Shown here: positions 2,918 through 20,180 of the stretch, piece after piece
How the letters are laid out: each line of letters begins with the position of its first letter
Numbering within the stretch: position 1 is the first letter of the stretch
Assembly: GCA_037441385.1 (NCBI GenBank)
Contig: JBBISH010000029.1
Location: 1 to 54,304 of the forward strand
Direction: 5' to 3'
Source: Myxococcales bacterium
Lineage (GTDB): Bacteria; Myxococcota_A; UBA9042
Length of the DNA stretch: 54,304 bases
Made by a program: the position numbers and the translations under genes
Notes under the pieces: model-generated
What the model was told of the DNA's origin: nothing
The model's input: the letters and a program-made list of their open reading frames with translations, nothing else
The model's database searches: none

Positions 2918-3064
2918 ACGCCAATCGCAGCGCCCAGCCCCCTTGCCAGCCCGGCCTGCTTGTGTGATCTTCGGCGCGTTCGCGGAGTCGACAGGCCTAA
3001 GCAGCGTGCCCATGGCCGCGCTCCCTCCCCGACCCTCTCTCGGCGACCCATTTGGAGAAAGTCC

Positions 3065-3436
3065 ATGTCGTTCATGACCCAATTCGAGTTCACCCTGCCG
3101 CGCGGTTACGTCGACAAAGACGGCGTCGTCCACAAGAAGGGCGTGATGCGCCTCGCGACCGCCAAGGACGAGATTTTGCCGCTGCAGGACTACCGCGTGC
3201 AGAACAACCGCGCGTACTTGGTCATCATTCTGCTGTCGCGCGTGATCGAGCAGCTGGGCTCGCTCAAGTCGATCAACCCGTCGATTATCGAGTCGCTGTT
3301 CTCGGTCGACCTCGCCTACCTGCAGGACTTCTACCGCCGCGTCAACGAAGAAGGCACGGCGATGATCAAGGCCAAGTGCCCCGAGTGCGGCCACCAGTTC
3401 GAGGTCGACACCGGAGGTGATCTGGGGGAATCGTAA
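3065..3436 (+). CDS. Contractile injection system tail assembly chaperone (gpG-like)
   Basis: 'TQFEFTLPRGYVD..G.VH..GVMRLATAKDEILPLQDYRV..N.AYL.IILLSRVI', C-terminal CPEC, ends 'LGES'. GGAG SD upstream; directly precedes the sheath gene. Confidence 0.8.
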   Translation: MSFMTQFEFTLPRGYVDKDGVVHKKGVMRLATAKDEILPLQDYRVQNNRAYLVIILLSRVIEQLGSLKSINPSIIESLFSVDLAYLQDFYRRVNEEGTAMIKAKCPECGHQFEVDTGGDLGES

Positions 3437-3594
3437 GCTACCCCCTGGAACGGCTCTACCAGGAGGTAGCGTACATCGCCTACCACTTCCATTGGCCGCT
3501 CGACGAGATTCTGGACATGGAGCACAAAGAGCGCCAGGTCTGGGTCAAGGAGATCTCCGAAATCAATAAGGAGATCAACAAGTCGCGCAAGTAG
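3427..3594 (+). CDS. DUF6760-like small CIS protein (gpT-like), probably expressed as a -1 frameshift fusion to the upstream chaperone
   Basis: Not in the ORF track. Reads GIVSYPLERLYQEVAYIAYHFHWPLDEILDMEHKERQVWVKEISEINKEINKSRK* (TAG 3592-3594). In-frame TGA at 3418-3420 and no ATG/GTG/TTG ahead of the conserved part. G-GGG-GAA at 3424-3430. Confidence 0.8.
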   Translation, partial: GIVSYPLERLYQEVAYIAYHFHWPLDEILDMEHKERQVWVKEISEINKEINKSRK

Positions 3595-3686
3595 TCTGCA
3601 GTCTTGGGCGGCGCCGCGCCTAAGCCGCGTCCCCGCACCATCACGGGAGTGCCAGCCGGTCAGCCCGCCCGGACAGTAGGAGCAGC

Positions 3687-5483
3687 ATGGTCAACAACCG
3701 CGCCCCCGGTGTCTTCATGGAGCGCGGCCCCTCGCGGCCGACCGAGCTTGGCTTGTTGCCCAGTGGGATCCCCGTGTTCCTGGGCATGGCCCAGCGCGGC
3801 CCCACCAACGAGCCGGTTCGCGTCACCAGCATCGAGCAGTTCTACAGCGTCTTTGGCAAGCTGCCAGCCGAGATCGACACCTTCCTCGCGGCTTCGATCG
3901 ACGGGTTTTTCCTGAACGGTGGCCGCGAGTGCTACGTGATGCGCATCGCGCACTTGTTCGACCAGCCCACTGACGACGACCGCCCGAATTTCCGCGCTGG
4001 CGCGCCCGACCGCTTCGACTTCGCCATCAAGAGCTCCGCACGGCTCCGCGACGGTGCCAAGCAGAACACCCTGCTGGCCCAGGCGATGAGCGAGGGTGTG
4101 TGGGGCAACGAGATCCGCGTGTCGGTGGTGGCGCGGCCTTCGCCGGTGCAGACCTTCCTGACCGTCGACGGCCAGCCGGGCGACAACACGGTGATGGTCA
4201 AGTCGACCTACGGCTTTGCCCGCGGTACCCAGATCAAGCTGAGCGACGGCGTGCACGAGGCCTACCGCGTCATCACCGCCGTAGAAGGCCGCGTGCTGTA
4301 CTGGGGCGAGCGCGAGCCGCTCGAGACTACCTTCGCCTCGTCCGCGCCCACGCTCGTCGAGCCGGTGCACTTCGACCTCATCGCCGAAACCCACAGTCAG
4401 CGCGAGGTGTTCCGCGATCTCAACCTGGCCCGCCAGTCGCCCCGTTTTGCCGAGCGCGTCGTCAACGGTGTCTCGCAGCTCATCACGGTGACCGATCTGT
4501 CCAGCGACTCGCCGATGCCGCTGGCGTTTCCGGTCGAGGTGGCGAACCAGCGCTTGGAGGGCGGCGCCGACGGCCTGTTTACGGTCCGTCCCGAAGACTT
4601 CAACGGCATGGACAACGGCCCAGGCCAGCGCTATGGCCTGCTGGGTATTGCCGATTTTGAGCAGACCGACCTGGTGTGCATGCCGGACCTGGCTTGGTGC
4701 GTCAAGCGGGGCCTGTGGACGGTGCGCGACATGGAGGTCGTGCAGCAGCAGGCGGTGGCGATCTGCGAAGAGAAGCAGGACCGCTTTGCCATCCTGGACG
4801 TTCCGCCCGACTACACGCCCACCGGGGCCATGCAGTGGCGGCGCCTGTTCGACACTTCTTACGCGGCCCTGTACTACCCCTTTGTCAAGCCCAACAATTC
4901 GGCGCGGTTCGTCCCGCCGTCGGGCCACGTCGCCGGCATTTTCGCCCGCTGCGACCGCGAGATGGGCGTATACCGCGCGCCGGCCAACGAGGCGTTCCAA
5001 GGGGTGGTCGATCTGCAGCTCATCCTGCAGCAAGGCGATCTGGCCATGCTGAACGGCGAGGGCGTCAACTGCCTGCAGGTCCTGGGGCAGCGCGGTATCC
5101 GCGTCTGGGGTGCCCGCACCGCATCGTCCGAGCCGCAACTGCTGTACATCAACGTACGCCGCACGATCCTGGCCATTGCCCGCGCCCTGTATCGCGGCCT
5201 GCAGTGGGTGGTTTTCGAGCCCAACGACTACCAGCTGTGGCACATCATCCAGCGCGACGTGGGTTTCTTCCTCGATGCGCTGTGGCGGCAGGGCTATCTA
5301 AAGGGCGAAAGTGCCGAGCAGGCCTACGTCGTGCGCTGCGACGAGTCGGTCAACAACGCCGAGTCGATCACGCTCGGTCAGGTCGCGGTCGACGTCTGGC
5401 TGGCCCCGTTCCGCCCTGCCGAGTTCATCGGCGTGCACGTGGTGCAAGAAGTCGACTCGATGGCGCAAGAAGGTGGGGTCTAG
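3687..5483 (+). CDS. Contractile tail sheath protein (Afp2/3/4, gp18-like)
   Basis: 'APGVFME', 'FLGMAQRGP', 'GFFLNGGRECYVMRI', 'RFAILDVP', 'YAALYYP', 'PPSGHVAGIFAR.D', 'RAPANE', 'GIRVWGART', 'YINVRR', 'WVVFEPND', 'LAPFRPAEFI'. AGGAG SD. Confidence 0.95.
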   Translation: MVNNRAPGVFMERGPSRPTELGLLPSGIPVFLGMAQRGPTNEPVRVTSIEQFYSVFGKLPAEIDTFLAASIDGFFLNGGRECYVMRIAHLFDQPTDDDRPNFRAGAPDRFDFAIKSSARLRDGAKQNTLLAQAMSEGVWGNEIRVSVVARPSPVQTFLTVDGQPGDNTVMVKSTYGFARGTQIKLSDGVHEAYRVITAVEGRVLYWGEREPLETTFASSAPTLVEPVHFDLIAETHSQREVFRDLNLARQSPRFAERVVNGVSQLITVTDLSSDSPMPLAFPVEVANQRLEGGADGLFTVRPEDFNGMDNGPGQRYGLLGIADFEQTDLVCMPDLAWCVKRGLWTVRDMEVVQQQAVAICEEKQDRFAILDVPPDYTPTGAMQWRRLFDTSYAALYYPFVKPNNSARFVPPSGHVAGIFARCDREMGVYRAPANEAFQGVVDLQLILQQGDLAMLNGEGVNCLQVLGQRGIRVWGARTASSEPQLLYINVRRTILAIARALYRGLQWVVFEPNDYQLWHIIQRDVGFFLDALWRQGYLKGESAEQAYVVRCDESVNNAESITLGQVAVDVWLAPFRPAEFIGVHVVQEVDSMAQEGGV

Positions 5484-5747: not shown

Positions 5748-6572
5748 ATGGCAGCCAACCTCCCCACTACCCAGCCCGCCAGTCCGAGCTCGCCCAAGGC
5801 GTCGGGCTCTCGCAGTCGCGCCTTGCTGGTGGCCGCGGAGCCTTCGCGCTCGCAGGGCAACCTGGTCGCACTGCCGGCCACTGCGCCGGAGTGGATCGGC
5901 CCGCACGGCGAAGAGCAGTTGGCCCTCGCCGCCATGGACCAGCCTAAAAAGCCTGCGCCCAAGCCGGCTAAGCCCGCGCCCAAGCCAGCCAAGCCCGCGC
6001 CCAAGACGCCCGCCAAGACTCCTGCCAAGCCCAAAGCTGCGGCGCCCAAGCCGTGGCAGCCGCCTGTCCTCGACATGGTGGTCCCGGTCGGCGGTGGCGG
6101 TCAGGCCTCGCACAGCACCAAAGAGCCGGGTGACCCCGACGTTGCCTACGCCTTCAACCTGTTCATCACCGGCACGAAGTACGGAATGTTCAGCGAGATC
6201 GGTGGCTTGTCGTGGAAGGCCGAGCCCGTGCCAGTGCGCTCGGGCGGCAACAACGAGTGGGTGCACAGCCTGCGCGGCCCGGGCAAGTTCGAGCCCTTGA
6301 CGCTCAAGCGCGGCTGGTTCGCCTCGACCGGCGAGTTCTTCAACCTACTGCAGCTCGGCCTGCAGGGCACCAAGATTCCCACCGGCGCCGCCGGTCGGTT
6401 TACCTTGACAATCGAGTGCTTGGACCGCGGCTACCAGCCGATCGGCTACTACGATTTCGTCGAGTGCTTCTTTGTCGAGTACACCGGCCCCGGCTTCAAT
6501 TCGATGTCGGGTCAGGTCGGCTTCGAGCAGATTCGCGTCGCGTATGACTACTTTACCTACAGCCCCGCCTAG
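5748..6572 (+). CDS. Tail tube protein (T4 gp19/Afp1-5 family) with ~125-aa N-terminal low-complexity Lys/Pro/Ala extension
   Basis: C-terminal 'FSEIGGL...RSGGNNEWVHSLRGPGKFEPLTLKRG...YTGPGFNSMSGQVGFEQIRVAYDYF' is gp19-like. Strong SD GGAGG before ATG 5748. Confidence 0.85.
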   Translation: MAANLPTTQPASPSSPKASGSRSRALLVAAEPSRSQGNLVALPATAPEWIGPHGEEQLALAAMDQPKKPAPKPAKPAPKPAKPAPKTPAKTPAKPKAAAPKPWQPPVLDMVVPVGGGGQASHSTKEPGDPDVAYAFNLFITGTKYGMFSEIGGLSWKAEPVPVRSGGNNEWVHSLRGPGKFEPLTLKRGWFASTGEFFNLLQLGLQGTKIPTGAAGRFTLTIECLDRGYQPIGYYDFVECFFVEYTGPGFNSMSGQVGFEQIRVAYDYFTYSPA

Positions 6573-6612: not shown

Positions 6613-9600
6613 GTGGCTGAAAATACTCAAGATCTGGCCAACCAGAGCTCGACCGGCACGGCCGACGTCTTGACGCTCCACCACGCCATCGTCGCGCGCT
6701 GGGGCAACGAGCGTTCGCTGAGCCAACGGACGGCTTCTGCGTTCGATGCCAGTTCGGGCCGCCACAGCGATTGGATCGGCGGGCTCCACGGCCTCGCGTC
6801 TCTGGGCGGCAGCTTTGGGCCGCAAGCCTGGAACATCGCGTCCGAATTGGCCACGGCTCCGCAACTGCTGCAGCGCCTCAGCCCAGCTATGCGCGCGCTG
6901 CAGGTCGGCGAACTGGCTGACTTGGTGCAGATCATCCTCGAAGAAGAGGAGAACAGCGCCGAATTGGCCGATCTGGAAGAGCAGGTGTCAGCGACGGCGG
7001 CGGCGCGGGCCAACTCGGCGAAAGCGGGAGCCCAGGCAGGCAAGTCCCGCCATGCAGCCAAGGTGGCCAACGCGCAGGCGTCGCGCTCGCCCGCTCCCAA
7101 GAAGGCGGGGGCGACCAAGAAGTCCGCAGCTGTGCAAGGAAAGCTCCGCGAACTGCGGCGGTTGCTGACTCAGCTCCGCAGCGGCGCCGATGCCGCGGCA
7201 AGTGGGGCGTCGATGCCCCAGCAGGCCGGGGACGTGGGGCCGCTCAGCCCCAACGCGACGATCGCTCACGCGGCCGAGTCGGCGGTTCGCGTGCAGACTG
7301 CGTCGGCCGACCAGGCTCGGCAACCGATCGCCCAAGCCTGGCGCGATGTTCCGGCAGGTGGCGCTCTGGCGGCCATGCTGGCCCGCTCGACCGCCGTCCA
7401 GGCGGCTGGCGGCGCTCTGCCTCCATCGGGTTCGGCGGCCAATACGCCGTCGCAGCGCGCGATGGCGCTGAATCCGTGGGCAGCGGTGGCGCAAGTCCAG
7501 GCCGAATTGCCCTCGCGCGCCTTGCGCATGGCCGAAGCTGCGGCCGACATGGGCTTTGTGAATTTGGCCCCCGAAGCCGGCGATGCCCCGGCCTTTGATG
7601 CGGCCAGCGCTGGTGCGGTCTCGGCCGCTCCCAGCAGCGCCGCGATCGCTGGCGTCGCTCCCGCCGCTCGGCCCACGGCGCAGAACGCACGTACGGCCCA
7701 GGCCAACGCTCAGCCGCAAGCGACTCAGCAAGTCCGCGCTGCACAACAGGCTGCCGCTCCTGCCCAAAGCACCCAGGCTGGGGCCCGCGCTGCTCAGCCG
7801 ACGGCCGCCGCCCGCGTGGCGGGCCCCGTGGCTGCGCTGGCGCCCACCACGCGCCGGTCCGGTCAGGGTTCAGCTTTGGCGAATTTTGCGGCCGCGCAGC
7901 GTCAGTGGTTGGGGCTGGCGCCCGCGACGCTGTCTGCGACGGCTCCCGCGCTGCGCGAGGCCGCGGCCGCTGTTGCACAATCGCCGGTGGCGGGGGCTCT
8001 CTCCGCTACAGTCACCCTCTCCGCTACAGACACTCGCCCCAACACAGACACTCGCCCCAACACAGACACTCGCCCCAACACAGACACTCGCTCCAACACA
8101 GACAAGGGCAGGGTTCGTGGCCGGGCCGCCAAGGGCGTGCAGACCAACGACTTGGTGCAAGGCGTCGCCGGACCGGCCCTGGCCGCGGGGACCATGGCGG
8201 ACGTAGCCGCCGCGGGCCAGAGCAGCTTGCCGCTCGCGTCCCCGGCTTTGCCTGCCCCGTTGGCGGGTCAGCAGCCGGCTTCTGGGCGCGCAACGGTCGC
8301 GCTGCAGGGCATGGTTTCGCTCGCGCATCAGACCTGGCTGCGCGGCGAGCGTGCGGCGTCGTTGGCGCTTCGCGCCCATGCAGCGGGCCAGACCGTGCCG
8401 TCGCAGTTGGCCGCGGCCAGTGAACCTGCGTCGGCGTGGATGCGCTGGGCGGACGCGGCCGTGCAAGCCTACTCAGGTGCGGCGCTGGCTGGCAGCCCAG
8501 TCGGTACCGCGGTCCGCGAGTCGGCCCTGGCCGGCACCTCTCCCGACCGTTCGATGCTTGAGTTGGCGGCCGAAGCGGAAGCGGCTGCCGATGCTAGTGA
8601 TTTTGCGCTTCGCTCCGACACGGGTCGCGCTGCACTTGGTGGTGCCACTCCCGCTCGCGCTGCCTCGGCGTTGCCCGCGTGGTTGGCGCCGCGCGCCGCC
8701 CTCCAGGGACTGCGCCAAGCCCAGGCCACGGCCGCTCCGGCTCAGTCCCGCGCTGCGGTTGCGGCTCCAGCAGCTGTCGCGACCGTCAAATCGGCGCCGG
8801 CCCTGCGCAACGTGACGGCAGCGTTGGGCGAACCAGCCGCTGGTCCCGTGGGTGTCTTTGCCGAGCAGGCTGGGACGAGTCCCGCGACGTTCAGCCCGCG
8901 CGCTGCGACAGCAGAGTTGGCAACCCTGCGGACTCGCATGGGGCTTCCTGGGCTGATCGGCGCAGTGGCCGACGGCGTGGGCGCTCGGGTCGCTGGTCGG
9001 TCTGGCATGCCCAGCGGGACTGCCGATCTGGGCTGGTCCAAGCTGGCTGCGCCTACTGCGGCGAGCGGCCAAGTGGTCCGCGAGGCCCCAGGCGAGTGGC
9101 TGGACACCAGCGCGGAAGCGTTGGAAGCCGCGGCTGTCGCTGCTGAATCCGCCGCTCAGAACGGGGCGACGCGGCGTTTGGCCCAAGGGCAAACGGCTGC
9201 GGGTCCTGCGATTGCCGCCGCCAAGGCGGGTCAGGCGGCGCGTACGGTCGCCGCCGCAGCGTCCGTCGGTGCGGTCAAGGCCGTCGGCATGGGTCAGACG
9301 CCCGCGATCGCGGCCGCTGCCCGGGCCATCGACTTCTTGCGTGGCCGGATGCAAAGCCAGATCGCGCCTGCGCAAGTGGGCCATGGTGTCGTGGATCAGG
9401 TGGCAGGCCTGGGCGACCAGGGCCTGTTGGCGGTCCGCCCGATGGGCCGGGCCGACGCGCTGAGTCAGTGGCTGCGGCCAGCGGCCGAGCGGCAAGCGCA
9501 AGCCGATCGCGGCGAAACGGCGGGCGAACTGCTTGGGTTGGTCGACGAGACCGCGACCGACGACGCCGGGTCGCAGGCCGGTGCCAGCCATACCGCGGCG

Positions 9601-11202
9601 GGTTCTGGAGCGAGCACCAAGACGGTGGCTGCCACCCAGGCTGCGGCCAAGCGCATGGTCGCGGGGACCGCGCAGGCTTCGCGCCAGGCTCGGCAGGCGG
9701 CAACGCCGATCGCGTCGCTGGGGCTGCAAAACCCCACGCCGCGGGCGCTGCGGGCGATCCTGGAAGCGCTGGGCGAGTCCGTGCCGGGCGCCGCGAGCGA
9801 TGTGGCCACCGCGTTTGCCGCCAAATGGCTGGGCCGGGCCGACGTGGCGCGGCAGGTCCTGGCGCGGCAGGTGACGGCAAGCCAGACGCAGGCGGGTCTT
9901 GGCCGCGACGGTTCGGTGGGCGATCTGCTGAACACGGCGGACATGGCCGATGGCGCGGCCGAGTTCGGCCCGACCGGCGGGCGACGTACGACCCGCACTG
10001 CGGCCAGCAAGCTGGGTACGGCTGCGGCTCCGGCCGTGACGGATCTGCTGGCCCGCAAGTCCAGCGATCCAGTGACGGTCGCGGCGGATGGCGACGGCGT
10101 GGTTCTGACCGGGCTGGCGGCGCTCGCGGCGCTCAGCAGCGGCGATTTGTTCGGTGCCAAGCCGGGAACGCGGACCATGCGCGCCCCCGAGGCGGAGCAG
10201 ACCTTGCTCGAACCCGCTCCGGACGCAGCGCCTGCAGCGGAATTGGTCAGCGAGGCTCCCGCGGCTGCGGCCGTCAAGTCGGCAGTTCCGGCGTCCAAGC
10301 CGGCGGCCGAGTCGCGCAAGCTGGCGGCTGTCAAGGTCCATGAATTTGCTCCGGTTGGCCTGGGCCGCGGTCGCAACTTGCTGGGTCAGCAGCGCCGGGC
10401 GGCGTGGCTGTCGCGCAGCACGCGCGGCTTGCACACCACGCCAAAGGGCAACGTGCACGCCACCATCCAGAGCCTGTCGCGCATGGCGGCGCTCCGCGGC
10501 GAGCGGCGCTTCGGCTACGGCGCGGCGGAGTTGGGCGGCGGCGAGCTGCTTGGGCTCACGGGCGCGATGGCCGGCGAAGGCGATGCGTTCTTTGGCGAGA
10601 TGGCGCCGACCACGGGCGCGGCGCGCGGCGCGGATCGGCTGAGCCAGTCGGTGCTGGCGCGTCGGCACGGCTCGGCAGCGGCACCGCAGGCCCAGCGGGC
10701 CATGCATGTGCCTGACTTTGAAGGTGCGCCGGTCATCCCGACCAACTTCTCGGCCGGCGACGCGGGGGCGACGGTGCACTCGATGGCCGACGCGGTGGCG
10801 GCTTCGGGACGGCGCGGTGGCGCGACAGCGGCGGGCCAGGGCGCCCAGGCTGCGGCGATGACCCGCGTCCTGTCGGTGACCTCGAGCCCAGGCGGCAACG
10901 TGCTGCCATTGGTGGCTCCGGCGGCCCAAGCGGTGGTCGCGGCGGCGGCAGCCAAGCCGTTGTCCGAATCGATCGTGACCAGTGGCGCGGATCCGTCGCT
11001 TGGCGTGCCGATCGTCGGTGTGGGTGACCACAAGGCCGGCAAGGCAAGCAGCGGCGGCGAAGGCGGCGGCCAGAAGGCCCGCGACGGTGCGGACGAACAC
11101 GCTGCCAATGTTCAGGATATCGAGGCCTTGGCGATGAAGATCGCGCGGGCAGTGATGGTGCGGATCAAGCGCGAGCGTGAGCGAAGGGGGCTCCATGTCT
11201 AA
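6613..11202 (+). CDS. 1529-aa Ala-rich CIS protein, putative tape-measure protein
   Basis: GGAGG SD with GTG start. Lies between the tube and LysM initiator genes. C-terminal helix 'DIEALAMKIARAVMVRIKRERERRG' resembles the ends of long low-complexity proteins at this position in eCIS loci. Stop overlaps the next gene. Confidence 0.6.
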   Translation: MAENTQDLANQSSTGTADVLTLHHAIVARWGNERSLSQRTASAFDASSGRHSDWIGGLHGLASLGGSFGPQAWNIASELATAPQLLQRLSPAMRALQVGELADLVQIILEEEENSAELADLEEQVSATAAARANSAKAGAQAGKSRHAAKVANAQASRSPAPKKAGATKKSAAVQGKLRELRRLLTQLRSGADAAASGASMPQQAGDVGPLSPNATIAHAAESAVRVQTASADQARQPIAQAWRDVPAGGALAAMLARSTAVQAAGGALPPSGSAANTPSQRAMALNPWAAVAQVQAELPSRALRMAEAAADMGFVNLAPEAGDAPAFDAASAGAVSAAPSSAAIAGVAPAARPTAQNARTAQANAQPQATQQVRAAQQAAAPAQSTQAGARAAQPTAAARVAGPVAALAPTTRRSGQGSALANFAAAQRQWLGLAPATLSATAPALREAAAAVAQSPVAGALSATVTLSATDTRPNTDTRPNTDTRPNTDTRSNTDKGRVRGRAAKGVQTNDLVQGVAGPALAAGTMADVAAAGQSSLPLASPALPAPLAGQQPASGRATVALQGMVSLAHQTWLRGERAASLALRAHAAGQTVPSQLAAASEPASAWMRWADAAVQAYSGAALAGSPVGTAVRESALAGTSPDRSMLELAAEAEAAADASDFALRSDTGRAALGGATPARAASALPAWLAPRAALQGLRQAQATAAPAQSRAAVAAPAAVATVKSAPALRNVTAALGEPAAGPVGVFAEQAGTSPATFSPRAATAELATLRTRMGLPGLIGAVADGVGARVAGRSGMPSGTADLGWSKLAAPTAASGQVVREAPGEWLDTSAEALEAAAVAAESAAQNGATRRLAQGQTAAGPAIAAAKAGQAARTVAAAASVGAVKAVGMGQTPAIAAAARAIDFLRGRMQSQIAPAQVGHGVVDQVAGLGDQGLLAVRPMGRADALSQWLRPAAERQAQADRGETAGELLGLVDETATDDAGSQAGASHTAAGSGASTKTVAATQAAAKRMVAGTAQASRQARQAATPIASLGLQNPTPRALRAILEALGESVPGAASDVATAFAAKWLGRADVARQVLARQVTASQTQAGLGRDGSVGDLLNTADMADGAAEFGPTGGRRTTRTAASKLGTAAAPAVTDLLARKSSDPVTVAADGDGVVLTGLAALAALSSGDLFGAKPGTRTMRAPEAEQTLLEPAPDAAPAAELVSEAPAAAAVKSAVPASKPAAESRKLAAVKVHEFAPVGLGRGRNLLGQQRRAAWLSRSTRGLHTTPKGNVHATIQSLSRMAALRGERRFGYGAAELGGGELLGLTGAMAGEGDAFFGEMAPTTGAARGADRLSQSVLARRHGSAAAPQAQRAMHVPDFEGAPVIPTNFSAGDAGATVHSMADAVAASGRRGGATAAGQGAQAAAMTRVLSVTSSPGGNVLPLVAPAAQAVVAAAAAKPLSESIVTSGADPSLGVPIVGVGDHKAGKASSGGEGGGQKARDGADEHAANVQDIEALAMKIARAVMVRIKRERERRGLHV
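7999..8103 (+). repeat. In-frame 18-bp tandem repeats (VNTR) inside the tape-measure-like gene
   Basis: ACAGACACTCGCCCCAAC x3 plus one variant copy (8026-8097, TDTRPN/TDTRSN), preceded by CTCTCCGCTACA repeated at an 18-bp period (7999, 8017). Confidence 0.95.
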
Positions 11203-11872
11203 CTTCACGATGGCCCGGATCGGGATCTACGGTGACGACGCCAAAAAAGGCAAGTTCTCCGCAGAGTTTCACGAGTTCATGTTCAACCCCGAGGCCGTGC
11301 GCGTCACCAAGTCGATGACGCCCAAGCAAGGCCGTTCGGCGAGCTCGAGTGCGCCCAAGCACCAGTTCACGTCGGGCAACCCGGCGCAGCTGGAATTCGG
11401 CGAGCTGTTGTTCGACGAGTTCGATGCGCGGGCCAACGTCTACGTCAAGCACGTCGCGTGGTTCGAGCAACTGCTCAAGGCCGACGAGAACCTGCACCGT
11501 CCGCCGCGGGTGGTGTTCATGTGGGGTCCGGGTTGGGCGGCCGAGGCCAGCCCCAACAAGGTCAACACGGGCATCTGGTTCGTCACCGGGCTGGATGTCA
11601 ACTACACCATGTTCTTGCCCGACGGCACGCCGGTGCGCTGCACTTGCAAGCTGACCCTGGCCGAGGAGCCGCCAGAGGGAGGCGAGACCAAGAACAGCCC
11701 CGACACGGCGCACGTGCACATGGTCGGCCGCGGCGACACGCTGCAGGCGATCTCGGCCTCGGAGTACGACGACCCGGCGGAGTGGCGGCGCATCGCCCAG
11801 GCCAATGGCATCGACGACCCCATCCACCTCAAGCCCGGTCAGCGTTTGCTGATTCCGCCCATCCTGCGCTGA
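11195..11872 (+). CDS. CIS tube initiator with C-terminal LysM domain (Afp7-like)
   Basis: 'FMFNPE', 'HRPPRVVFMWG', 'YTMFLPDGTPVRCTCKLTL.E', then LysM 'HMVGRGDTLQAISASEYDDPAEWRRIAQANGIDDP..LKPGQRLLIP'. Confidence 0.9.
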   Translation: MSNFTMARIGIYGDDAKKGKFSAEFHEFMFNPEAVRVTKSMTPKQGRSASSSAPKHQFTSGNPAQLEFGELLFDEFDARANVYVKHVAWFEQLLKADENLHRPPRVVFMWGPGWAAEASPNKVNTGIWFVTGLDVNYTMFLPDGTPVRCTCKLTLAEEPPEGGETKNSPDTAHVHMVGRGDTLQAISASEYDDPAEWRRIAQANGIDDPIHLKPGQRLLIPPILR

Positions 11873-11941
11873 TTTGTTCGCGTCCGTTTCGAACCAGACG
11901 AGTCGGAACCAAGCGAGTCCCAACTGAGCGAGGGAAGTGTC

Positions 11942-13099
11942 ATGGACAAGAACGTTGCAAGCCTGACCGTAAAACTTGCAGGCAGCACGTCGATCAAGAC
12001 CGACGCGGGGCCGAATCTGGAAACCCGTGCCGGCGAAGGCATCGTGTCGGTGTCCGTCGACCTGCGTCTGGATCAGCCCGACATGTTCACGGTCGAGTAC
12101 GACATGATGAAGCTGGAAAAGCTGAATCTGATCGACTCGTTCAAGCCGGGCGCCGAGGTCGAGATCGGCATCGGTCTGGACAAGCAAGAGACGTTGCTGT
12201 TTGGCGAAATCAGCTACATCGAGCCCAGCTTTGACGTGGAACAGGGCTATCACACCACGATTTCGGGCTACCACAAGGTGCACCGCCTGACGCGCGGCCA
12301 GCGCAGCAAGACCTGGGGCGACGGCCTGAAGCCGGAAGTGTCGCCGACGACGCCGATCAAGGACGTCATCAACAACTCCAAGGCGAATCAGGGCGGCACC
12401 ACCAGCGACAAGATGAGCGCCGGTGACGTGGGCTCGACGGACGTCAAGCATCACTATGTGCCGCAGCTCAACGTCTCGGACTTCGAATTCCTGCAGGCCG
12501 TTGGCGCCAGCTTGGAGATGAAGGCCGGCGACGACGGCGCGACCAAAGTCACGTTCCGCAAGCCCGATCCCAGCAGCGCGCCGGTCATGAAGATCGCCCG
12601 CGAGCGTTCGGGCCAGGGCGGACAGAGCGAGGCGGGATCGTTCCTGCACCTGAACTTCCGCCTGTCGATTGTGCAGCAGTACGCGGCCGTGGAAGTCCGC
12701 AGCTGGGACTTTGTCACCAAGAAGAACATCGTCGCCAAGGTCACCTCGTCCAAGTACAACTTCGACGGGACCAAGGGCCACAGCGACACCGGCACCGGCC
12801 TGTGGGGCGGCGGTTCGACGGGCCGCAAGTTCGTGGTAGTCGACCAACCCGTCAACACCAAGGCAGAAGCCGAGGCGCTGGCGCAGTCGCTCTTTGACCA
12901 GTTCTCGATGGACTTCTTGACCGGCGAAGTGGTGCTGGACGGCAACCCCAAGTGCATCCCCGGCAAGACCATCGAATTCGAGGGCTTTGGCAAGGCGTTC
13001 AGCGGCAAGTACTTGATCACGTCCGCGACGCACACCTATCGCCCGGACGAAGGCTACCGCACCTCGGTCTCGTTCTCGCGCAACGCCAAGGGCGCCTGA
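11942..13099 (+). CDS. Baseplate hub (gp27/phage late control D; N-terminal half of VgrG/Afp8), no spike domain
   Basis: 'LLFGEISYIEPSF', 'HRLTRGQRSKTW', 'Q.NVSDFEFL', 'VEVRSWD', 'GNP...PGKTIEFEGFGKAFSGKYLITSATHTY...GYRT'. Ends at 385 aa with no gp5 OB-fold. Confidence 0.85.
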   Translation: MDKNVASLTVKLAGSTSIKTDAGPNLETRAGEGIVSVSVDLRLDQPDMFTVEYDMMKLEKLNLIDSFKPGAEVEIGIGLDKQETLLFGEISYIEPSFDVEQGYHTTISGYHKVHRLTRGQRSKTWGDGLKPEVSPTTPIKDVINNSKANQGGTTSDKMSAGDVGSTDVKHHYVPQLNVSDFEFLQAVGASLEMKAGDDGATKVTFRKPDPSSAPVMKIARERSGQGGQSEAGSFLHLNFRLSIVQQYAAVEVRSWDFVTKKNIVAKVTSSKYNFDGTKGHSDTGTGLWGGGSTGRKFVVVDQPVNTKAEAEALAQSLFDQFSMDFLTGEVVLDGNPKCIPGKTIEFEGFGKAFSGKYLITSATHTYRPDEGYRTSVSFSRNAKGA

Positions 13100-13294
13100 T
13101 CGCCCGCCCGCCTGGGGCCAATCCGCTGAATTTTCGCCACGTCGCGCAATAGGGGCCAGAGCCGATCGCGCCGATGGCCCATGTGCAGCGGTATGCGCGG
13201 CGGCTGTCTGCCCGCGATCCATCGAAATTACAAGTCATTTCTTGTCCCCACCGCAGGCGCCGCCGACGATTTTCGCCGACCGCCGCCGGTGCCG

Positions 13295-13322
13295 TTGACA
13301 GCATGGGTCCCGTCGCTACGAT
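13295..13322 (+). promoter_or_regulatory. Putative sigma-70-type promoter ahead of the baseplate wedge genes
   Basis: TTGACA (13295-13300), 16-nt spacer, TACGAT (13317-13322), in the 277-bp gap before gp25. Confidence 0.55.
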
Positions 13323-13376
13323 GGTCGGGCGTTTCGTCTGCCCAGGCTATCAGTGCGCCCGACGCAGGGGATGGGA

Positions 13377-13778
13377 ATGGTCAAGAACTTTCTCGGTCAC
13401 GGTCTAAAGTTCCCGTTGCAGGTCAACGCGGTCGGCGGATTGGCCATGTCCGAGGGGGCCGACAACATCGAAGAGGCGGTGCGCCTGATCGTCGGGACGG
13501 CGGTGGGCGAGCGCGTGATGCGCCCCCTGTTCGGCTGCCGGATCCACGACTACGCCTTCCACCCCAACTCCACGGCGACAGCCGGCATGGTGGCGTTCTA
13601 CGTTGCCGAAGCGCTGAACAAGTGGGAGCCGCGCATCACCGATGTGCGTGTTTCGGCTAACCCAAGTGATATCAACGAGTCGCTGATGAACGTGTCGATC
13701 CGGTACAAGATCCGCTCGACCAACGTCGATCGCAACTTCGTGTATCCCTTCTACCTGAGGCGGGAGCAGGATCTATGA
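13377..13778 (+). CDS. GPW/gp25 family baseplate protein (Afp9-like)
   Basis: 'FLGHGLKFP', 'I.EAVRLIVGTAVGERVMRPLFGC', 'ALNKWEPRI', 'NFVYPFYL'. Alternative ATG at 13371. Confidence 0.92.
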   Translation: MVKNFLGHGLKFPLQVNAVGGLAMSEGADNIEEAVRLIVGTAVGERVMRPLFGCRIHDYAFHPNSTATAGMVAFYVAEALNKWEPRITDVRVSANPSDINESLMNVSIRYKIRSTNVDRNFVYPFYLRREQDL

Positions 13779-16700
13779 TCCCAAGTCCGAATCTTGACGA
13801 TCGCACGTTCGAGGACATCGTCCAAGAAGCGATCCGACTCATCCCGCAGTACTGCCCGGAGTGGACCAACCACAACCGGTCGGATCCCGGCATCACCCTG
13901 GTCGAGCTGTTCGCCTGGATGACCGAGATGACGCTTTACCGGCTCAACCGCGTGCCGGAGAAGAACTTCTTGGCCTTCTTGGAGCTGATGGGCATCACCC
14001 TGGCTCCGCCGCAGCCGGCGCGAACCGTGTTGAAATTTGGGCTGAACCCCAAGGCCGACATGGTGGTGGTGCCGCGTGGCGCGCGGGTGGGCACCAAGCC
14101 CGGGCCCGACGGCACGGCGATCGGCTTCGAGACCGAGAACGACCTGTGCGTGACCAACGCGGCGCTGGCGATGTGCATGAGCCAGTACCACGAAACCTTT
14201 AGCGATTACACCGGACTGCTGGGCCGCAAGCGCGAAGGCGTGGAGCTGTGGTCGGGCGTGCGCAGCGTAGAACGCTACTTGTTCCTGGGCGACAAGCGCC
14301 TCAAGGCGTTCAACGAGACGTCGATTCTGACGATTCGCACCACTGCGCCGGGCTCGACGCCCACGCCGCTGTGCAAGCAGCTGGAGTGGGAGTACTTTGA
14401 CGGCGAGCGGTGGCGCGCCCTGGCCAGCCCGCCGCTCGAGACGGAGGCCGACCAGGTGTCGCTCATCGGGCCGCCCGCGCTGGCCGAGTCGGTGGTGGGC
14501 GAGTTCCAGGGCCTGTTCCTGCGCGGCAAGCTCATTGAAGTGCCCAGTCAGCCTAGCGATACCTTGCTGGACACGGTGTCGATGCGCCTGGAGGTCATCG
14601 GCGAGGGCGAGCCCCCGGATCTGGCGTACTCGGATCGCTCGGGCGGCATGTTCCAAAAGCTGGAAGTCGACCGGCTGATGCTGCCGTTTGGCAACGAACC
14701 CGTCGTGGATTCGGCCCTGTACGTGGCCTGCGCCCGGGTGCTCGACCACCCCGACGCCGACGTGCGCATCGACTTCGAGCTGGCCGACCCGTCGGTGGTG
14801 CCGGCGCCGCAGGGTTCGGGCGATCTGGTGCTGGTGTGGGAGTACTTCAACGGCAAGCGTTGGCGTCTGATTGGCCGCAACGGAGTGGGCGACTTTGATG
14901 TCGAGGATCCGGGCTTCAGCTTCAAGGACGATACCAGCTGCCTGACCGTCTCGGGCGCCGTGTCGTTCAAGCGGCCCAAGGACATCAAGCCTTGCGAAAT
15001 CAACGGCAAAGAGGCCGTGTGGGTGCGCGCCCGCATCGAGCGCGGCGATTTCGGCGTCCAGGGCACCTACGAGCTGGAGAACGACCGCTGGGTGTGGAAA
15101 GACAGCCGGCCGCTGCGTCCGCCGACGCTCAAGGGCCTGGCCCTGCGCTTTGTGGAGCAGGAGCACGAGTTCGAGCGCGTCATCGCCTACAACGACTTCC
15201 TGTTCAGCGACTATTCGGCGCTGGCGGTGCCCAGCGAGTCGGGCAAGCCGTTCCAGCCGTTCCAGCCGATCGCTGAGGAAAGCCCAACACTGTACCTGGG
15301 TTTCAAGCTGGCCACCTACGACGGCAACGCACCGCCCGGACCGCAGCCCTTCCCCAACGAGCGGATCCAGCTGTATTTTGAGCTGAGCGAGAGCGACGGC
15401 CCGGGGCGCCGTCTGCGCGCGGGCGCCGGTCAGACCAGTCGGCAGCTGGCGCAGGTCCACGCCGAGCAGGTCATCAACTGGGAGTACTGGAACGGCAAGG
15501 ACTGGATCTCGCTGATTACCCGCGACCAGACCTATGGTTTTACCCAGTCGGGCTTCATCGAATTCGTGGGCCCGAACGATCACCGCTCGCACAAGCGCTT
15601 TGGCGTGCCGCTGTACTGGGTTCGCGCTCGTTTGGAATTCGGTGGTTACGACGAGCCGCCGCTGCTGCGCAACATCCTGCTCAACGCCTGCTACGCGACC
15701 AACGTCACCAGCTACAACGAGGAGGTGATGGGCAGTTCGCGCGGCACGCCCAACCAGAGCTTCAAGTTCGTGCGCGGCCCCGTGCTGCCCGGCCAAGAGA
15801 TCTGGGTGCGCGAGCGCGAACGGCCGCCCACGCCGGATCTGGTCGAGCTCGAACGCGAATTCGGCGATCGCTTCTTGGAAGACAGCCCCGAGGGCGGCGT
15901 GATGGTGCGCTGGATCGAGATCGACAGCTTGTACGAAAGCAAGCCCGGCTCGCGCCACTACGTCAAAGACATCGTCACCGGCGAAGTCAAGTTCGGCGAC
16001 GGCATCCACGGCCTGATCCCGCCCAAGGGCGACCGCAACGTCGTGTGCAAGCGCTATCAGGTGGGCGACGGTGAGCGGGGCAACGTGCCGCCGGACTCGG
16101 TGTCGGTGCTGCTGCAGAACGTGCCGTACGTCGACTCGGTGCGCAATGTGTTTGCCGCGTCGGGTGGTTGCGACCTAGAGACCATCGAAGAGGCCAAGCG
16201 CCGCGGGCCACACAGCCTCAAGGCCAAAGGCCGCGCGGTGACGGCGGAAGACTTCGAGTGGTTGGCGATCGAAGCGTCCAATTCGGTGGCGCGCGTCTGC
16301 ACGCTGCCGACCTACGACCGCGAAGGCGAAGTGACGGTAGTGATCGTGCCCAAAGTGGCCGAAAACCATCCGGACTTCTTGGACAAGCCGATCCCGTCGA
16401 CCGAGCTGCTGCGCAAAGTGCGCAACCACCTGGCCGATCGCAAGCTGATCTCGACGATCCTGAACGTGCAGCGCCCCACTTTCCGCGAGATGTCGGCCCA
16501 GGTCGAGATCGTCGTGCTGCAGGCGGCCGGTTCGGACCGGGTCAAGCGCGAGATCGAGCGGCGGATCCGCATGTTCCTGCACCCGCTCAAGGGCGGCAAA
16601 GACGGCAAGGGCTGGCCGTTCGGCCGGCCAGTCTACCGCGTGGACCTGTACCACGTCATCGAAGACGTGCCGGGCGTGGACTTTGTCGACCGCGTGCGCC

Positions 16701-16813
16701 TCATCGACGAGACCAGCAAGCTCGAAGTCGACCAGTTCAAGGTCGGCGCGGGCGAGCTGGTCCACGTGGTGCGCGTGGAAGTGATCGAAAAGGCGCACGA
16801 ACGCATCGTGTAA
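13775..16813 (+). CDS. Baseplate J-like wedge protein (gp6/Afp11-like), 1012 aa
   Basis: 'PNLDDRTFEDIV...IPQYCPEWTNHN.SDPGITLVELFAW', 'GSSRGTPNQSF', 'VKFGDGIHGLIPP', 'GG.D.ET.EEAKRR', 'RAVTAEDFE', 'FLHPLKGG.DGKGWPFGR'. ATGA overlap with gp25. Confidence 0.93.
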   Translation: MIPSPNLDDRTFEDIVQEAIRLIPQYCPEWTNHNRSDPGITLVELFAWMTEMTLYRLNRVPEKNFLAFLELMGITLAPPQPARTVLKFGLNPKADMVVVPRGARVGTKPGPDGTAIGFETENDLCVTNAALAMCMSQYHETFSDYTGLLGRKREGVELWSGVRSVERYLFLGDKRLKAFNETSILTIRTTAPGSTPTPLCKQLEWEYFDGERWRALASPPLETEADQVSLIGPPALAESVVGEFQGLFLRGKLIEVPSQPSDTLLDTVSMRLEVIGEGEPPDLAYSDRSGGMFQKLEVDRLMLPFGNEPVVDSALYVACARVLDHPDADVRIDFELADPSVVPAPQGSGDLVLVWEYFNGKRWRLIGRNGVGDFDVEDPGFSFKDDTSCLTVSGAVSFKRPKDIKPCEINGKEAVWVRARIERGDFGVQGTYELENDRWVWKDSRPLRPPTLKGLALRFVEQEHEFERVIAYNDFLFSDYSALAVPSESGKPFQPFQPIAEESPTLYLGFKLATYDGNAPPGPQPFPNERIQLYFELSESDGPGRRLRAGAGQTSRQLAQVHAEQVINWEYWNGKDWISLITRDQTYGFTQSGFIEFVGPNDHRSHKRFGVPLYWVRARLEFGGYDEPPLLRNILLNACYATNVTSYNEEVMGSSRGTPNQSFKFVRGPVLPGQEIWVRERERPPTPDLVELEREFGDRFLEDSPEGGVMVRWIEIDSLYESKPGSRHYVKDIVTGEVKFGDGIHGLIPPKGDRNVVCKRYQVGDGERGNVPPDSVSVLLQNVPYVDSVRNVFAASGGCDLETIEEAKRRGPHSLKAKGRAVTAEDFEWLAIEASNSVARVCTLPTYDREGEVTVVIVPKVAENHPDFLDKPIPSTELLRKVRNHLADRKLISTILNVQRPTFREMSAQVEIVVLQAAGSDRVKREIERRIRMFLHPLKGGKDGKGWPFGRPVYRVDLYHVIEDVPGVDFVDRVRLIDETSKLEVDQFKVGAGELVHVVRVEVIEKAHERIV

Positions 16814-16842
16814 TTCGCCACCCCTGTCGGAGCTGAGCCAAC

Positions 16843-17790
16843 ATGGCCGTTGCCAGTATCGGTGCCAGTACAACCAGCGGTGGCGGAATCCCTCCCGGCG
16901 GCGGACAGGGCGGCGGTGCGCGCGGTCCCCGACCCCTGGAGCGGCGCGTCAAGAAGGTCATCGTTCCCGAAGTGACCGGCCTGCTCTATCGCGACGCGAT
17001 CATCGTGCTGCAGCAAGCGGGGTTGCCCGCGCCGCTGGCCCGCTATACCGAGGCGTATGCCGACGAGAGCACCGTCGTCGAGCAGTACCCGATCCGCGGT
17101 CAGCTGGTCGACAGCACCACGCAAGTGTCCGTCTCGATTGCCAAGTCGAGCTGGATGGCCTTCTTGCCGCAAGTGTTCCAGGTCTCGGTCAACAACGAGA
17201 ACCAGTTCCTGCATGAATTCATGTGGGTGTTCCAGCAGTTGCACGAGCACATCGACCAGGTGCTGACGCGGATGCCCTGGCTGTTCCGCCCGCAAGAGAC
17301 CGATCCGGCCTTCTTGCCGTGGCTGGCCAGCTGGATTGCCCTGGGGCTCGAAGCCGATTGGCCGGTGGAGCAGCAGCGCAAGTGGCTCCGCTGTGCGCCC
17401 GCGCTCTACAGCATCCGTGGCACCAAGCAAGCGCTTGAAAGTCTGCTGGAAATGTACACCGGGCTGCGACCGCGCCTCATCGAGAACGAGTGGCCCTTCG
17501 AGCCGATGCGCGTGGGCGTGTCCTCTGAAATTGGTGTGACGTCGGTGATTTTGCCGGCGATCAGCATGGCGCATTGTTTTGTGGTCGAGCTCCCGGTGCA
17601 GGCCGGAACGCTCACCGACGACCAGATCATCCGCATCCACCGGGTGATCCAGGCCGAAAAGCCAGCGCATACGATGTACTTCCTGACGTTCTCGAACCAG
17701 GCCAAGCTCGACGAAGAAGAGCACGGTCTGGTCATCGGCGAAGCCTTTGTCGAAGGCGAGTCCGACGTCGACTGGTCCGAAGAGCCGTAG
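16843..17790 (+). CDS. Phage tail protein I-like (gp7/P2 gpI) baseplate protein with N-terminal PASTA-like domain
   Basis: gpI-like 'FLPQVF', 'F.P.ETDPAFLPWLASWIAL', 'LYSIRGTKQALE', 'I.AEKPAHT'. Residues ~38-102 'VIVPEVTGLLYRDAIIVLQQAGL...TVVEQYPIRGQLV....VSVSIA' match the PASTA pattern. Confidence 0.85.
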   Translation: MAVASIGASTTSGGGIPPGGGQGGGARGPRPLERRVKKVIVPEVTGLLYRDAIIVLQQAGLPAPLARYTEAYADESTVVEQYPIRGQLVDSTTQVSVSIAKSSWMAFLPQVFQVSVNNENQFLHEFMWVFQQLHEHIDQVLTRMPWLFRPQETDPAFLPWLASWIALGLEADWPVEQQRKWLRCAPALYSIRGTKQALESLLEMYTGLRPRLIENEWPFEPMRVGVSSEIGVTSVILPAISMAHCFVVELPVQAGTLTDDQIIRIHRVIQAEKPAHTMYFLTFSNQAKLDEEEHGLVIGEAFVEGESDVDWSEEP

Positions 17791-19503: not shown

Positions 19504-20145
19504 GTGAGCAACCCGATTGTCGATTTTTTCCGCAATCTCGGCCAGCAGCGCGTCGACGCCGCCGTCAACTCGGTCAACGCCAAGAAGATGGGCGCCATCG
19601 CCAAAGCCAAGTCGGGCGCTGCCAAAGAGTTCAATAAGGCCGTCAACGCGCCAATGAAGGCCGCCAAAGAGGCAGCGGGCGGCGCCAAGAAGGCCGCGGC
19701 CGACAAGGCCAAGCCCAAGGAGGGAGGCGACATGGGATGGTTTGGTAGGAAGAAAGCCGAGCCGATCGACGAGCCTGCCGAGGAATACGGCGGCGGCGAA
19801 AAGACCGTCGCGATCAACCTGAACGACATCAACCGCAGCACTTTCAAGCCGGTGGTGGGCTGGGTGGTGGTCCTCTCGGGCGAGCTCCGCGGGCGCGACT
19901 TTCGCCTGGTCGACGGCAAGAACACCATGGGCACGGCGGCCGACTGCGACGTGGTGCTGACCGACCCGTACTTGTCGAGCAAACACTCGGTGATCCGCCA
20001 CGAGAACGGGACCTTCACCGTCAGCGACCTGGACTCGACCAACGGCACCTTTGTCAACGACCGCCGCATCAGCCGGATGGACATCATCGACAACGACAAG
20101 ATTCGGTTGGGGCGCACGGAACTGAAGTTCAAGTCGCTGGAATGA
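19504..20145 (+). CDS. FHA domain protein with Lys/Ala-rich N-terminal extension
   Basis: 'GWVVVLSGELRGRDF', 'CDVVLTDPYLSSKHS', 'DLDSTNGTFVN', 'DNDKIRLGRTEL'. GTG start 19504; second in-frame ATG at 19732 with its own GGAGG SD. Confidence 0.85.
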   Translation: MSNPIVDFFRNLGQQRVDAAVNSVNAKKMGAIAKAKSGAAKEFNKAVNAPMKAAKEAAGGAKKAAADKAKPKEGGDMGWFGRKKAEPIDEPAEEYGGGEKTVAINLNDINRSTFKPVVGWVVVLSGELRGRDFRLVDGKNTMGTAADCDVVLTDPYLSSKHSVIRHENGTFTVSDLDSTNGTFVNDRRISRMDIIDNDKIRLGRTELKFKSLE

Positions 20146-20180
20146 TTCCCAATCTCAAGTTCCCGCCCAAGGAGCGAACC

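Follow-up and report, generated by a model that had tools for sequence, protein, structure and literature searches.

The proposed frameshift locus and its two reading frames

The stretch of DNA analysed here, referred to below as the window, is 54,304 nucleotides (nt) of a Myxococcales bacterium (GenBank assembly GCA_037441385.1, contig JBBISH010000029.1). Upstream of a contractile-tail sheath gene it carries two short overlapping open reading frames (ORFs): a chaperone-like one, here called ORF-A, and a second one in the -1 frame that belongs to the Pfam family DUF6760. An earlier note on this DNA, made from the sequence alone, had proposed that a programmed -1 ribosomal frameshift joins the two in the manner of the tail assembly chaperones of phages, and the present analysis follows up that proposal. 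The features at the locus are these:

3065..3436, + strand: ORF-A, 123 amino acids (aa); tail-assembly-chaperone-like protein, the 'G/E' half, product of normal decoding
3413..3417, + strand: GGAGG, an element resembling a Shine-Dalgarno (SD) sequence, 6 nt upstream of the heptamer; inferred as a possible stimulator
3421..3594, + strand: DUF6760 open stretch in the -1 frame, the 'T/E'' half; 57 codons plus TAG, with a Pfam match
3424..3430, + strand: slippery heptamer G_GGG_GAA in ORF-A phase; Gly121 is GGG and Glu122 is GAA
3431..3436, + strand: spacer TCGTAA, 6 nt, containing the ORF-A stop TAA
3437..3470, + strand: stem-loop GCUACC-C-CCUGG / 10-nt loop / CCAGG-A-GGUAGC, 11 base pairs; putative frameshift stimulator
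3065..3594, + strand: predicted trans-frame product, 176 aa; ORF-A residues 1-122 plus 54 residues of the -1 frame (3430-3591), IVSYPLER...SRK

ORF-A begins at ATG 3065, which is preceded by GGAGAA (3054-3059), and ends in CTG (3422) GGG (3425) GAA (3428) TCG (3431) TAA (3434-3436). The -1 frame is closed by TGA at 3418-3420, then reads TCT GGG GGA ATC GTA AGC TAC CCC CTG GAA and stays open to TAG at 3592-3594. It encodes the conserved motif LYQEVAYIAYHFHW, and its first ATG, GTG or TTG is the ATG at 3517-3519, downstream of that motif. The part decoded after a shift would run from 3430 to 3591 and comprise 54 codons, beginning IVSYPLERLYQEVAYIAYHFHW. Re-reading the DNA confirmed what had been described for the end of ORF-A, the closure of the -1 frame, the open stretch and the missing start codon ahead of the conserved region; the product lengths given there, 123 aa and ~176 aa, also hold, the longer one being 122 residues to Glu122 plus 54 codons. 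A further ORF in the +1 frame (3417-3569) was considered and dropped, having no family and lying in the wrong frame.

Searched against Pfam, the -1 ORF matches DUF6760 (PF20546) with an E-value of 1.3e-15 and 57.6 bits (gathering cut-off 27), and the same family is matched by 24/24 aligned relatives. Because of this match we take the -1 ORF to be genuine coding sequence and no chance open frame; a search of DUF6760 against NCBIfam gave no match. The family also leads to a known frameshift product. In the phage P2 record gpE+E' is annotated '-1 frameshift; essential tail protein', and what PF06528 ('Phage_P2_GpE') matches in that protein is its -1 part, E' (E 2.1e-22), gpE itself being PF10109. 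The DUF6760 of the window matches PF06528 weakly (E 0.002, under the gathering score), as do 12 of 24 DUF6760 members at E <=0.05, and since PF06528 covers P2 E' and not gpE, this weak match points to the frameshift-encoded half. Aligned by hhalign, a 24-sequence DUF6760 profile and P2 E' gave a probability of 90.6% over 33 columns, with FHWP..E..M..E..W in common. DUF6760 appears from these comparisons to be distantly homologous to P2 E', short of formal membership in PF06528. A complex prediction that combined the DUF6760 alignment with the tube domain encoded nearby (residues 120-274 of the 5748-6572 product) scored 0.00, which is uninformative either way.

In PHROGs, ORF-A matches phrog_508 ('tail assembly chaperone', E 8.8e-6), and of 24 diverse relatives 21 do so too, the best with E 4.3e-8; Pfam and NCBIfam gave no match for ORF-A. 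An AlphaFold (AF2) model built from a 24-sequence alignment reached a predicted local distance difference test score (pLDDT) of 77.8 and was aligned exhaustively to 48,161 PDB representative chains. The top match was YqbN (3klu; Z 7.2, root-mean-square deviation (rmsd) 4.1, 91 residues aligned), followed by the tail assembly chaperone of HK97 (2ob9; Z 6.2, rmsd 4.0, 85 residues aligned) and 3fgx (Z 5.5); the fourth row had a Z of 4.7 and the others <=3.2. A Foldseek search of the model against the PDB returned nothing at E <=0.001, with the HK97 chaperone as a weak row. By profile and by modelled fold, ORF-A is probably a tail assembly chaperone, distantly related to those known. The link to the phage G/GT pair drawn in the earlier note is thereby strengthened on three sides: DUF6760 looks related to P2 E', ORF-A matches a phage chaperone family and fold, and GGGGGAA, as described below, is a documented motif.

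The ORF-A family itself counts 1524 representatives at E <=0.001 and is far wider than the Myxococcota clade examined here. Two distant members (P0145, P0146) have long, acidic, low-complexity C-terminal tails, encoded in frame, in place of DUF6760. Others (L059 at 1-538, P0128, P0130, P0132 and P0136) carry tandem ORF-A domains in one frame, with two matched stretches and 244-252 aa; these are duplicated chaperone modules.

Conservation of the junction

Conservation was surveyed in several sets of loci. A scan of species-representative genomes with ORF-A returned 71 loci, of which 69 are true relatives from metagenome-assembled genomes of Myxococcota, at 66-100% identity. The remaining two (L070 from Hydrogenedentota and L071 from a cyanobacterium) are zinc-ribbon-like fragments in genomes that lack DUF6760, and were set aside as no relatives. 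Searching for the DUF6760 family found it in 125/301 Myxococcota genomes, including 23/23 of the window's own family; a further 30 loci were drawn from across the phylum, and the pair was also present on 8 IMG/VR contigs. In every one of these, DUF6760 lies directly behind ORF-A in the -1 phase (69/69 relatives, 30/30 phylum-wide loci and 8/8 IMG/VR contigs). Four loci (L020, L024, L055 and L110) were missed by the motif pattern and conform on inspection; the counts that follow refer to 96 non-redundant loci, among which L020, L024 and L055 are not included.

The slip site is held in place at the level of single bases. NNG GGG occurs in ORF-A phase in 96/96 loci, and the five Gs of the heptamer are invariant in 93/93 loci with the standard spacer. 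The heptamer is G_GGG_GAA in 85 loci, G_GGG_GGA in 6, G_GGG_GGG in 1 and G_GGG_GAG in 1, and in 2 it is G_GGG followed by a stop. These counts, with the -1 phase in 99/99 genome loci, bear out the conserved slip site and phase that the frameshift proposal had called for. The codon before GGG may be CTG, ATG, CAG, GTG, TTG, TCG or CCG, that is, six amino acids with one constant final G. As the amino acid varies and the base does not, the constraint lies on the nucleotide and not on the protein; from the aligned codons, this G seems to be kept as the X position of a slippery heptamer, for which a protein constraint offers no explanation. The ORF-A stop is located 0, 1, 2 or 6 codons past the heptamer. 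GGGGGAA is also a documented chaperone slip site of high-GC phages, because PMC10885494 lists it as the 'five-two' slip motif of ~1000 actinophage chaperone genes, with the same G:U argument for re-pairing as is used below.

A second junction type is seen in three loci (L067, L098 and L110), where NNG GGG is followed directly by a stop codon (TAG or TGA). It would correspond to a slip with a stop codon in the A site. In L067 and L098 the spacer is 18 nt, and L067 has a different hairpin (-19 kcal/mol).

Single-frame versions of the pair are nearly absent. In a search for longer versions ('longer' search, 66 candidates), 4 proteins matched and one of them, P0124, is an in-frame fusion of 174 aa with the junction ...LGQAWGIVSYPLE; its fold, predicted without an alignment, had a pLDDT of 38.5 and was unusable. 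DUF6760 was found in 0/25 representatives of the extended ORF-A family proteins. With in-frame fusions this rare, the two-frame layout is evidently maintained, and its near-universal occurrence in the genomes compared is the expected signature of a programmed shift that yields two products. The suggestion that DUF6760 ORFs are generally 'T' halves is supported as far as the survey reaches, namely within Myxococcota genomes and the 8 IMG/VR contigs.

Spacer, hairpin and upstream element

Downstream of the heptamer the spacer is 6 nt in 93/96 loci, with varying letters and a varying position of the stop within it. In the window the hairpin starts 6 nt past the heptamer and has a folding energy of -21.2 kcal/mol (z -4.22), with 0/200 shuffles equally stable. 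A synonymous-recoding control was used because both arms of the hairpin are coding: 13 codons were recoded synonymously with the loci's own codon usage. Across the 96 loci the median energy was -21.2 kcal/mol as observed vs -10.1 when recoded (median z -3.7), and in 89/96 loci <=5% of the recodings were equally stable. The codons of the stem show the same preference. The Val codon of the 3' arm is the rare GTA in 91/96 loci, vs 4% of Val codons elsewhere in the same genes, and the Ser codon AGC of the 5' arm is kept in 90/96 loci, vs 13% of Ser codons elsewhere in these genes.

Paired changes between the arms were also seen. Where the 3' arm has AAG for CAG, the 5'-arm Leu codon is TTG, CTT or CTC in 21/23 loci, and where it has CAG the Leu codon is CTG in 63/66. 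Such pairing is supporting evidence and not proof of the stem, the clades being related. An RNAalifold consensus of 22 junctions shows no variation in the lower stem; the upper stem pairs in registers that shift from clade to clade, which leaves almost no column-wise covariation (1 pair). A search of 3000-3700 against Rfam found no family. Two loci, L056 and L057, retain G_GGG_GAA and the -1 phase and have lost the hairpin (-7.6 and -6.8 kcal/mol), both arms being altered (TAT for Tyr, GTC for Val).

Upstream of the heptamer, a duplex with the anti-SD sequence of <=-8 kcal/mol can form within 24 nt in 64% of the 96 loci, vs 2% of control windows internal to ORF-A. In the window this is the GGAGG at 3413..3417, and another clade has AAGGAG ~11 nt upstream of the heptamer. 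A role for this element as a stimulator is suggestive only, as judged from its recurrence, and the same region also encodes a Gly-rich linker. Pairing of the G-run with a downstream C-run was considered as a further element and dropped, given that a slip site under decoding cannot be paired.

A probable programmed -1 frameshift and its alternatives

We interpret ORF-A and DUF6760 as a single unit, expressed by programmed -1 ribosomal frameshifting in the manner of phage tail assembly chaperones and comparable with lambda G/GT and P2 E/E+E', and give this reading a probability of roughly 0.8. It rests on the two frames and their homologies, and on the conserved heptamer, phase, spacer and hairpin. 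The majority of ribosomes would read ORF-A to the TAA at 3434 and release the 123-aa chaperone. On G_GGG_GAA, with GGG and GAA occupied by tRNA-Gly and tRNA-Glu, a fraction would be held up by the stem-loop at 3437-3470, possibly with help from the upstream SD-like GGAGG. On slipping back one base, tRNA-Gly would re-pair perfectly, GGG for GGG, and tRNA-Glu would re-pair with GGA through a G:U pair at the middle position. The shifted ribosomes would then read ATC GTA AGC TAC CCC and onward to the TAG at 3592, giving a 176-aa protein with DUF6760 at its C-terminus. The predicted junction is ...DLGE/IVSYPLER, or ...DLG/GIVSYPLER when the P-site tRNA alone slips; a junction peptide ...DLGEIVSYPLER would mark the tandem slip and ...DLGGIVSYPLER the P-site slip.

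By analogy with lambda and P2, the common N-terminal part of the two products would coat a tape-measure-like protein, here perhaps the 1529-aa product encoded downstream, and the DUF6760 (E'/T-like) part would recruit tube subunits. The chaperone pair would in this way set up the polymerisation of tube and sheath, and neither form would stay in the finished particle. A broader version of the interpretation is that this is a cellular, vertically kept programmed -1 frameshift in which an SD-like element, G_GGG_GAA and a 6-nt spacer with hairpin form a cassette within a chromosomal contractile injection system (CIS) cluster of ~40% of sampled Myxococcota genomes, with DUF6760 as a general 'T/E'' tube-recruiting domain. 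We lean towards this wider proposal, with distinctly less assurance than we have in the frameshift at the locus itself.

The alternative that survives best is that DUF6760 is made as a separate protein, either by re-initiation or coupling at the ORF-A stop or by de novo 30S initiation, with the G-run serving as Shine-Dalgarno sequence and the start being GTG where present or else a near-cognate AUC 3430, GUA 3433 or CUG 3445. Gene callers indeed list stand-alone DUF6760 proteins of 49-78 aa, whose length is set by whichever start exists; the GGGGG could pair with the anti-SD sequence and is followed by ATN in nearly all loci; and in 29/96 loci a GTG or ATG lies between the heptamer and an invariant Tyr-Pro, overlapping the stop in the classic GTGA/ATGA manner, although it occurs there only where a TGA stop creates the codon. 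In 43/96 loci, by contrast, there is no canonical start: as far as two codons beyond the Tyr-Pro, the open -1 frame contains no ATG, GTG or TTG. A further 14/96 have TTG alone, at the Leu behind Tyr-Pro, and 10/96 have starts solely further upstream, within the ORF-A overlap, that seem to be there by chance.

The individual candidate codons fare no better. At the position of GTA 3433 the loci have GTA (50), GTG (25), GTT (4), GTC (3) or a few codons for Ile, Thr, Ala and Leu. A GTG that is also found as GTA, GTC and GTT follows a synonymous pattern that would be lethal for a start codon, and the spread fits a Val that is read in elongation, not an initiator. The earlier note had named CTG 3445 as a possible independent start, and the alignment contradicts it: the Tyr and Pro encoded upstream of it are invariant in the protein, and the Leu codon itself varies between CTG, TTG, CTT and CTC. 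From the end of the G-run it is 1 nt to ATC and 4 nt to GTA, distances too short for normal SD spacing. Initiation would also be hindered by a selected hairpin of -21 kcal/mol placed 7 nt past the supposed start, and it gives no role to the invariant third-position G or to the fixed ORF-A phase of the G-run. As the sole explanation we therefore hold separate initiation to be unlikely, and admit it as a possible minor route in the 29/96 loci that have a GTG or ATG.

A more doubtful alternative still is stuttering of RNA polymerase on G5, which would add one G in some transcripts and so create a single-frame fusion. A homopolymer run does lie exactly at the junction, and the in-frame fusion sequence of P0124 fits a G-run that differs by one base. 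Against this, five Gs are far shorter than the A or T runs known for efficient transcriptional slippage, and the fixed phase, the 6-nt spacer and the hairpin are features of ribosomal frameshifting that polymerase stuttering does not need. Contigs assembled from RNA libraries of relatives (4 runs) cross the junction without an indel in 3 runs, which is weak evidence, as rare variants are lost from such contigs, DNA may be mixed in, and neither rare slipped transcripts nor the level of expression can be read from them. The review PMC5009743 treats transcriptional slippage separately from ribosomal frameshifting.

Least credible is an error or a decayed gene: either a sequencing or assembly fault, affecting the G-run or GTA 3433, or an ORF that was single until it broke recently. 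In its favour are the proneness of homopolymer runs to error and the origin of the window in a metagenome-assembled genome. Against it, the same two-frame layout recurs in 99 species genomes and 8 IMG/VR contigs, both frames are under purifying selection, in-frame versions are nearly absent, and GTA recurs at 3433, where the earlier note had worried about a misread GTG, in 50/96 loci from different species genomes; we regard this alternative as excluded by conservation.

Several points weigh against the frameshift reading. The slip itself, its efficiency and the binding partners of the products are what we infer, and the loci come from related species, so that the counts are not independent events. 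The codon past the slip site is ATC, ATA, ATT or ATG in 93/96 loci, which leaves room for the minor route by independent or coupled initiation just admitted. ORF-A showed no similarity to P2 gpE (PF10109) by hhalign, and the structural Z-scores of its model are middling, yet its matches are of the expected kind and are separated from the remaining rows. In the A site, tRNA-Glu can re-pair with GGA only through a G:U pair at the middle position, and we know of no measured efficiency for this motif. The recoding test was failed by 7/96 loci, and five failing loci (L052, L056, L057, L067 and L098) have weak hairpins in the tested segment, which in L067 and L098, with their 18-nt spacer, missed their own downstream hairpin. 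Finally, the gene order is ORF-A, DUF6760, sheath, tube and 1529-aa ORF, which places the pair upstream of the sheath and not between tube and tape-measure.

The surrounding gene cluster

The genes around the pair are as follows:

297-2141, - strand: Ser/Thr protein kinase with Lcl_C domain, just upstream of the cluster
3687..5483, + strand: tail sheath gene; Phage_sheath_1 E 1.5e-16, Phage_sheath_1C E 8.9e-10
5748..6572, + strand: gp19-like tube protein gene; Phage_T4_gp19 E 1.8e-19 at residues 133-270; candidate partner of the T-like domain
6613..11202, + strand: 1529-aa ORF; tape-measure-like candidate, by its position
11177..17790, + strand: baseplate/spike block; CIS_tube+LysM, phrog_52 tail protein, gp25, Baseplate_J, Tail_P2_I
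19504-20145 and 20142-21716, + strand: FHA-domain genes, one with a VWA domain; cluster end

The 1529-aa ORF has no match in Pfam or PHROGs, and the cluster ORFs at 11942-13099 and 17875-19416 are likewise without a Pfam match. The rest of the 54-kb contig is housekeeping: Nuo (complex I), FtsY, biotin carboxylase, PrmA and signal peptidase. No head genes were seen on the contig. By gene content this is best described as a chromosomal contractile-tail (CIS-like) cluster. The earlier note had called it an extracellular CIS (eCIS), a label that the sheath, tube, baseplate and spike genes favour. An Afp15-type AAA+ ATPase and an Afp16/DUF4255 cap protein are features of eCIS, and neither had a Pfam match among the ORFs scanned (not every small ORF); we keep the more general term.

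Some of these genes have features of their own. The tube protein has an N-terminal extension of ~130 aa (5748-6140) with a Lys/Pro/Ala repeat (KPAPKPAKPAPK...) ahead of the tube domain; the extension looks real because a strong GGAGG precedes ATG 5748. The 1529-aa ORF has a GC content at third codon positions of 0.78, vs 0.86-0.88 in its neighbours. The kinase and FHA genes bring to mind the phospho-switch of kinase and FHA protein by which some type VI secretion systems are controlled. Taken from its first ATG, an ORF for a Uma2-family endonuclease (1985-2917, + strand) shares ~157 bases with the kinase gene of the opposite strand; since the Pfam match of its product sets in at residue 116, the true start is probably later.

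Comparison with known systems

As a mechanism and as a motif, what we describe is textbook for phages and already known. The conservation of the tail-assembly-chaperone frameshift in long-tailed phages was established in earlier work (Levin 1993; Xu, Hendrix, Duda 2004, 2013, 2014; summarised in PMC5009743). Three things appear to be new: the chromosomal, CIS-like location, kept by ~40% of the Myxococcota genomes sampled; the reading of DUF6760 as the E'/T-like half; and the documentation of a module of spacer and hairpin. A literature search, with subscription journals outside its coverage, found no paper on DUF6760 and none that links contractile injection systems or tailocins with a frameshifted chaperone.

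The assignment would give a concrete function to a Pfam family of unknown function, DUF6760 being the frameshift-encoded E'/T-like chaperone half, and it bears on hundreds of DUF6760 database entries that carry arbitrary start codons. The phage chaperone frameshift would then reach beyond phages, into a contractile-tail cluster that is chromosomal and found widely in one phylum, and the few known cellular -1 frameshift genes would gain a further candidate. If true, this would be one of very few bacterial gene sets, outside viruses and insertion sequences, whose function requires -1 frameshifting, and the assembly of CIS-type machines would involve a phage-style pair of chaperones, which current CIS models leave out. 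For GGGGGAA, a motif whose mechanism has so far been discussed from phage annotation only, the locus offers an unusually complete cassette of heptamer, fixed spacer and selected hairpin. For the study and engineering of injection systems, it suggests a pair of assembly factors that today's part lists do not contain.

Among the systems that it resembles, eCIS of the Afp/PVC type share the sheath, a gp19/CIS-type tube, a LysM-tube, gp25, Baseplate_J and P2_I-type genes in an operon-like block with no head genes. They differ in the Afp15-type ATPase and Afp16/DUF4255 cap, which were not among the ORFs scanned here, and we know of no described eCIS reported to use a frameshifted chaperone pair.

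Phage P2 offers the closest parallel in layout. Its gpE/gpE+E' pair likewise consists of a short upstream ORF and a start-less -1 extension of ~50 aa, with the slip, here a predicted one, a few codons before the upstream stop; the extension appears homologous (the weak PF06528 match and the hhalign probability of 90.6%), and the neighbours include sheath, tube and P2-type baseplate genes (gp25/W, J, I). In contrast, the P2 slip site is a T-run where GGGGGAA is found here, and ORF-A is without detectable sequence similarity to gpE. The P2 order is FI, FII, E/E', T, with the pair between tube FII and tape-measure T, whereas here the pair is upstream of the sheath. The present cluster, moreover, sits among housekeeping genes on a 54-kb contig with no head genes and belongs to a family found in 125/301 Myxococcota genomes.

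With lambda gpG/gpGT the locus would share one start for two products, the second of which arises by a -1 slip late in the first ORF. In lambda, G is the partner of the tape measure and the T domain that of the tube subunit, with the two products at a ratio of ~30:1 (PMC5009743). The likeness to long-tailed phages extends to structure, in that the ORF-A model resembles the HK97 chaperone structure 2ob9. The pair differs from lambda in having no sequence similarity to G or T and another gene position, and in being part of a chromosomal, non-viral element.

The actinobacteriophages of the SEA-PHAGES collection, as described in the PRFect paper (PMC10885494), come nearest in the slip site: the heptamer is identical, the re-pairing proposal is the same, the genomes are of high GC, and the genes are of the same kind. 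Theirs, however, are siphophage genes that precede the tape-measure gene, whereas the pair described here lies on a Myxococcota chromosome, beside the genes of a contractile tail, and is accompanied by a conserved 6-nt spacer and hairpin.

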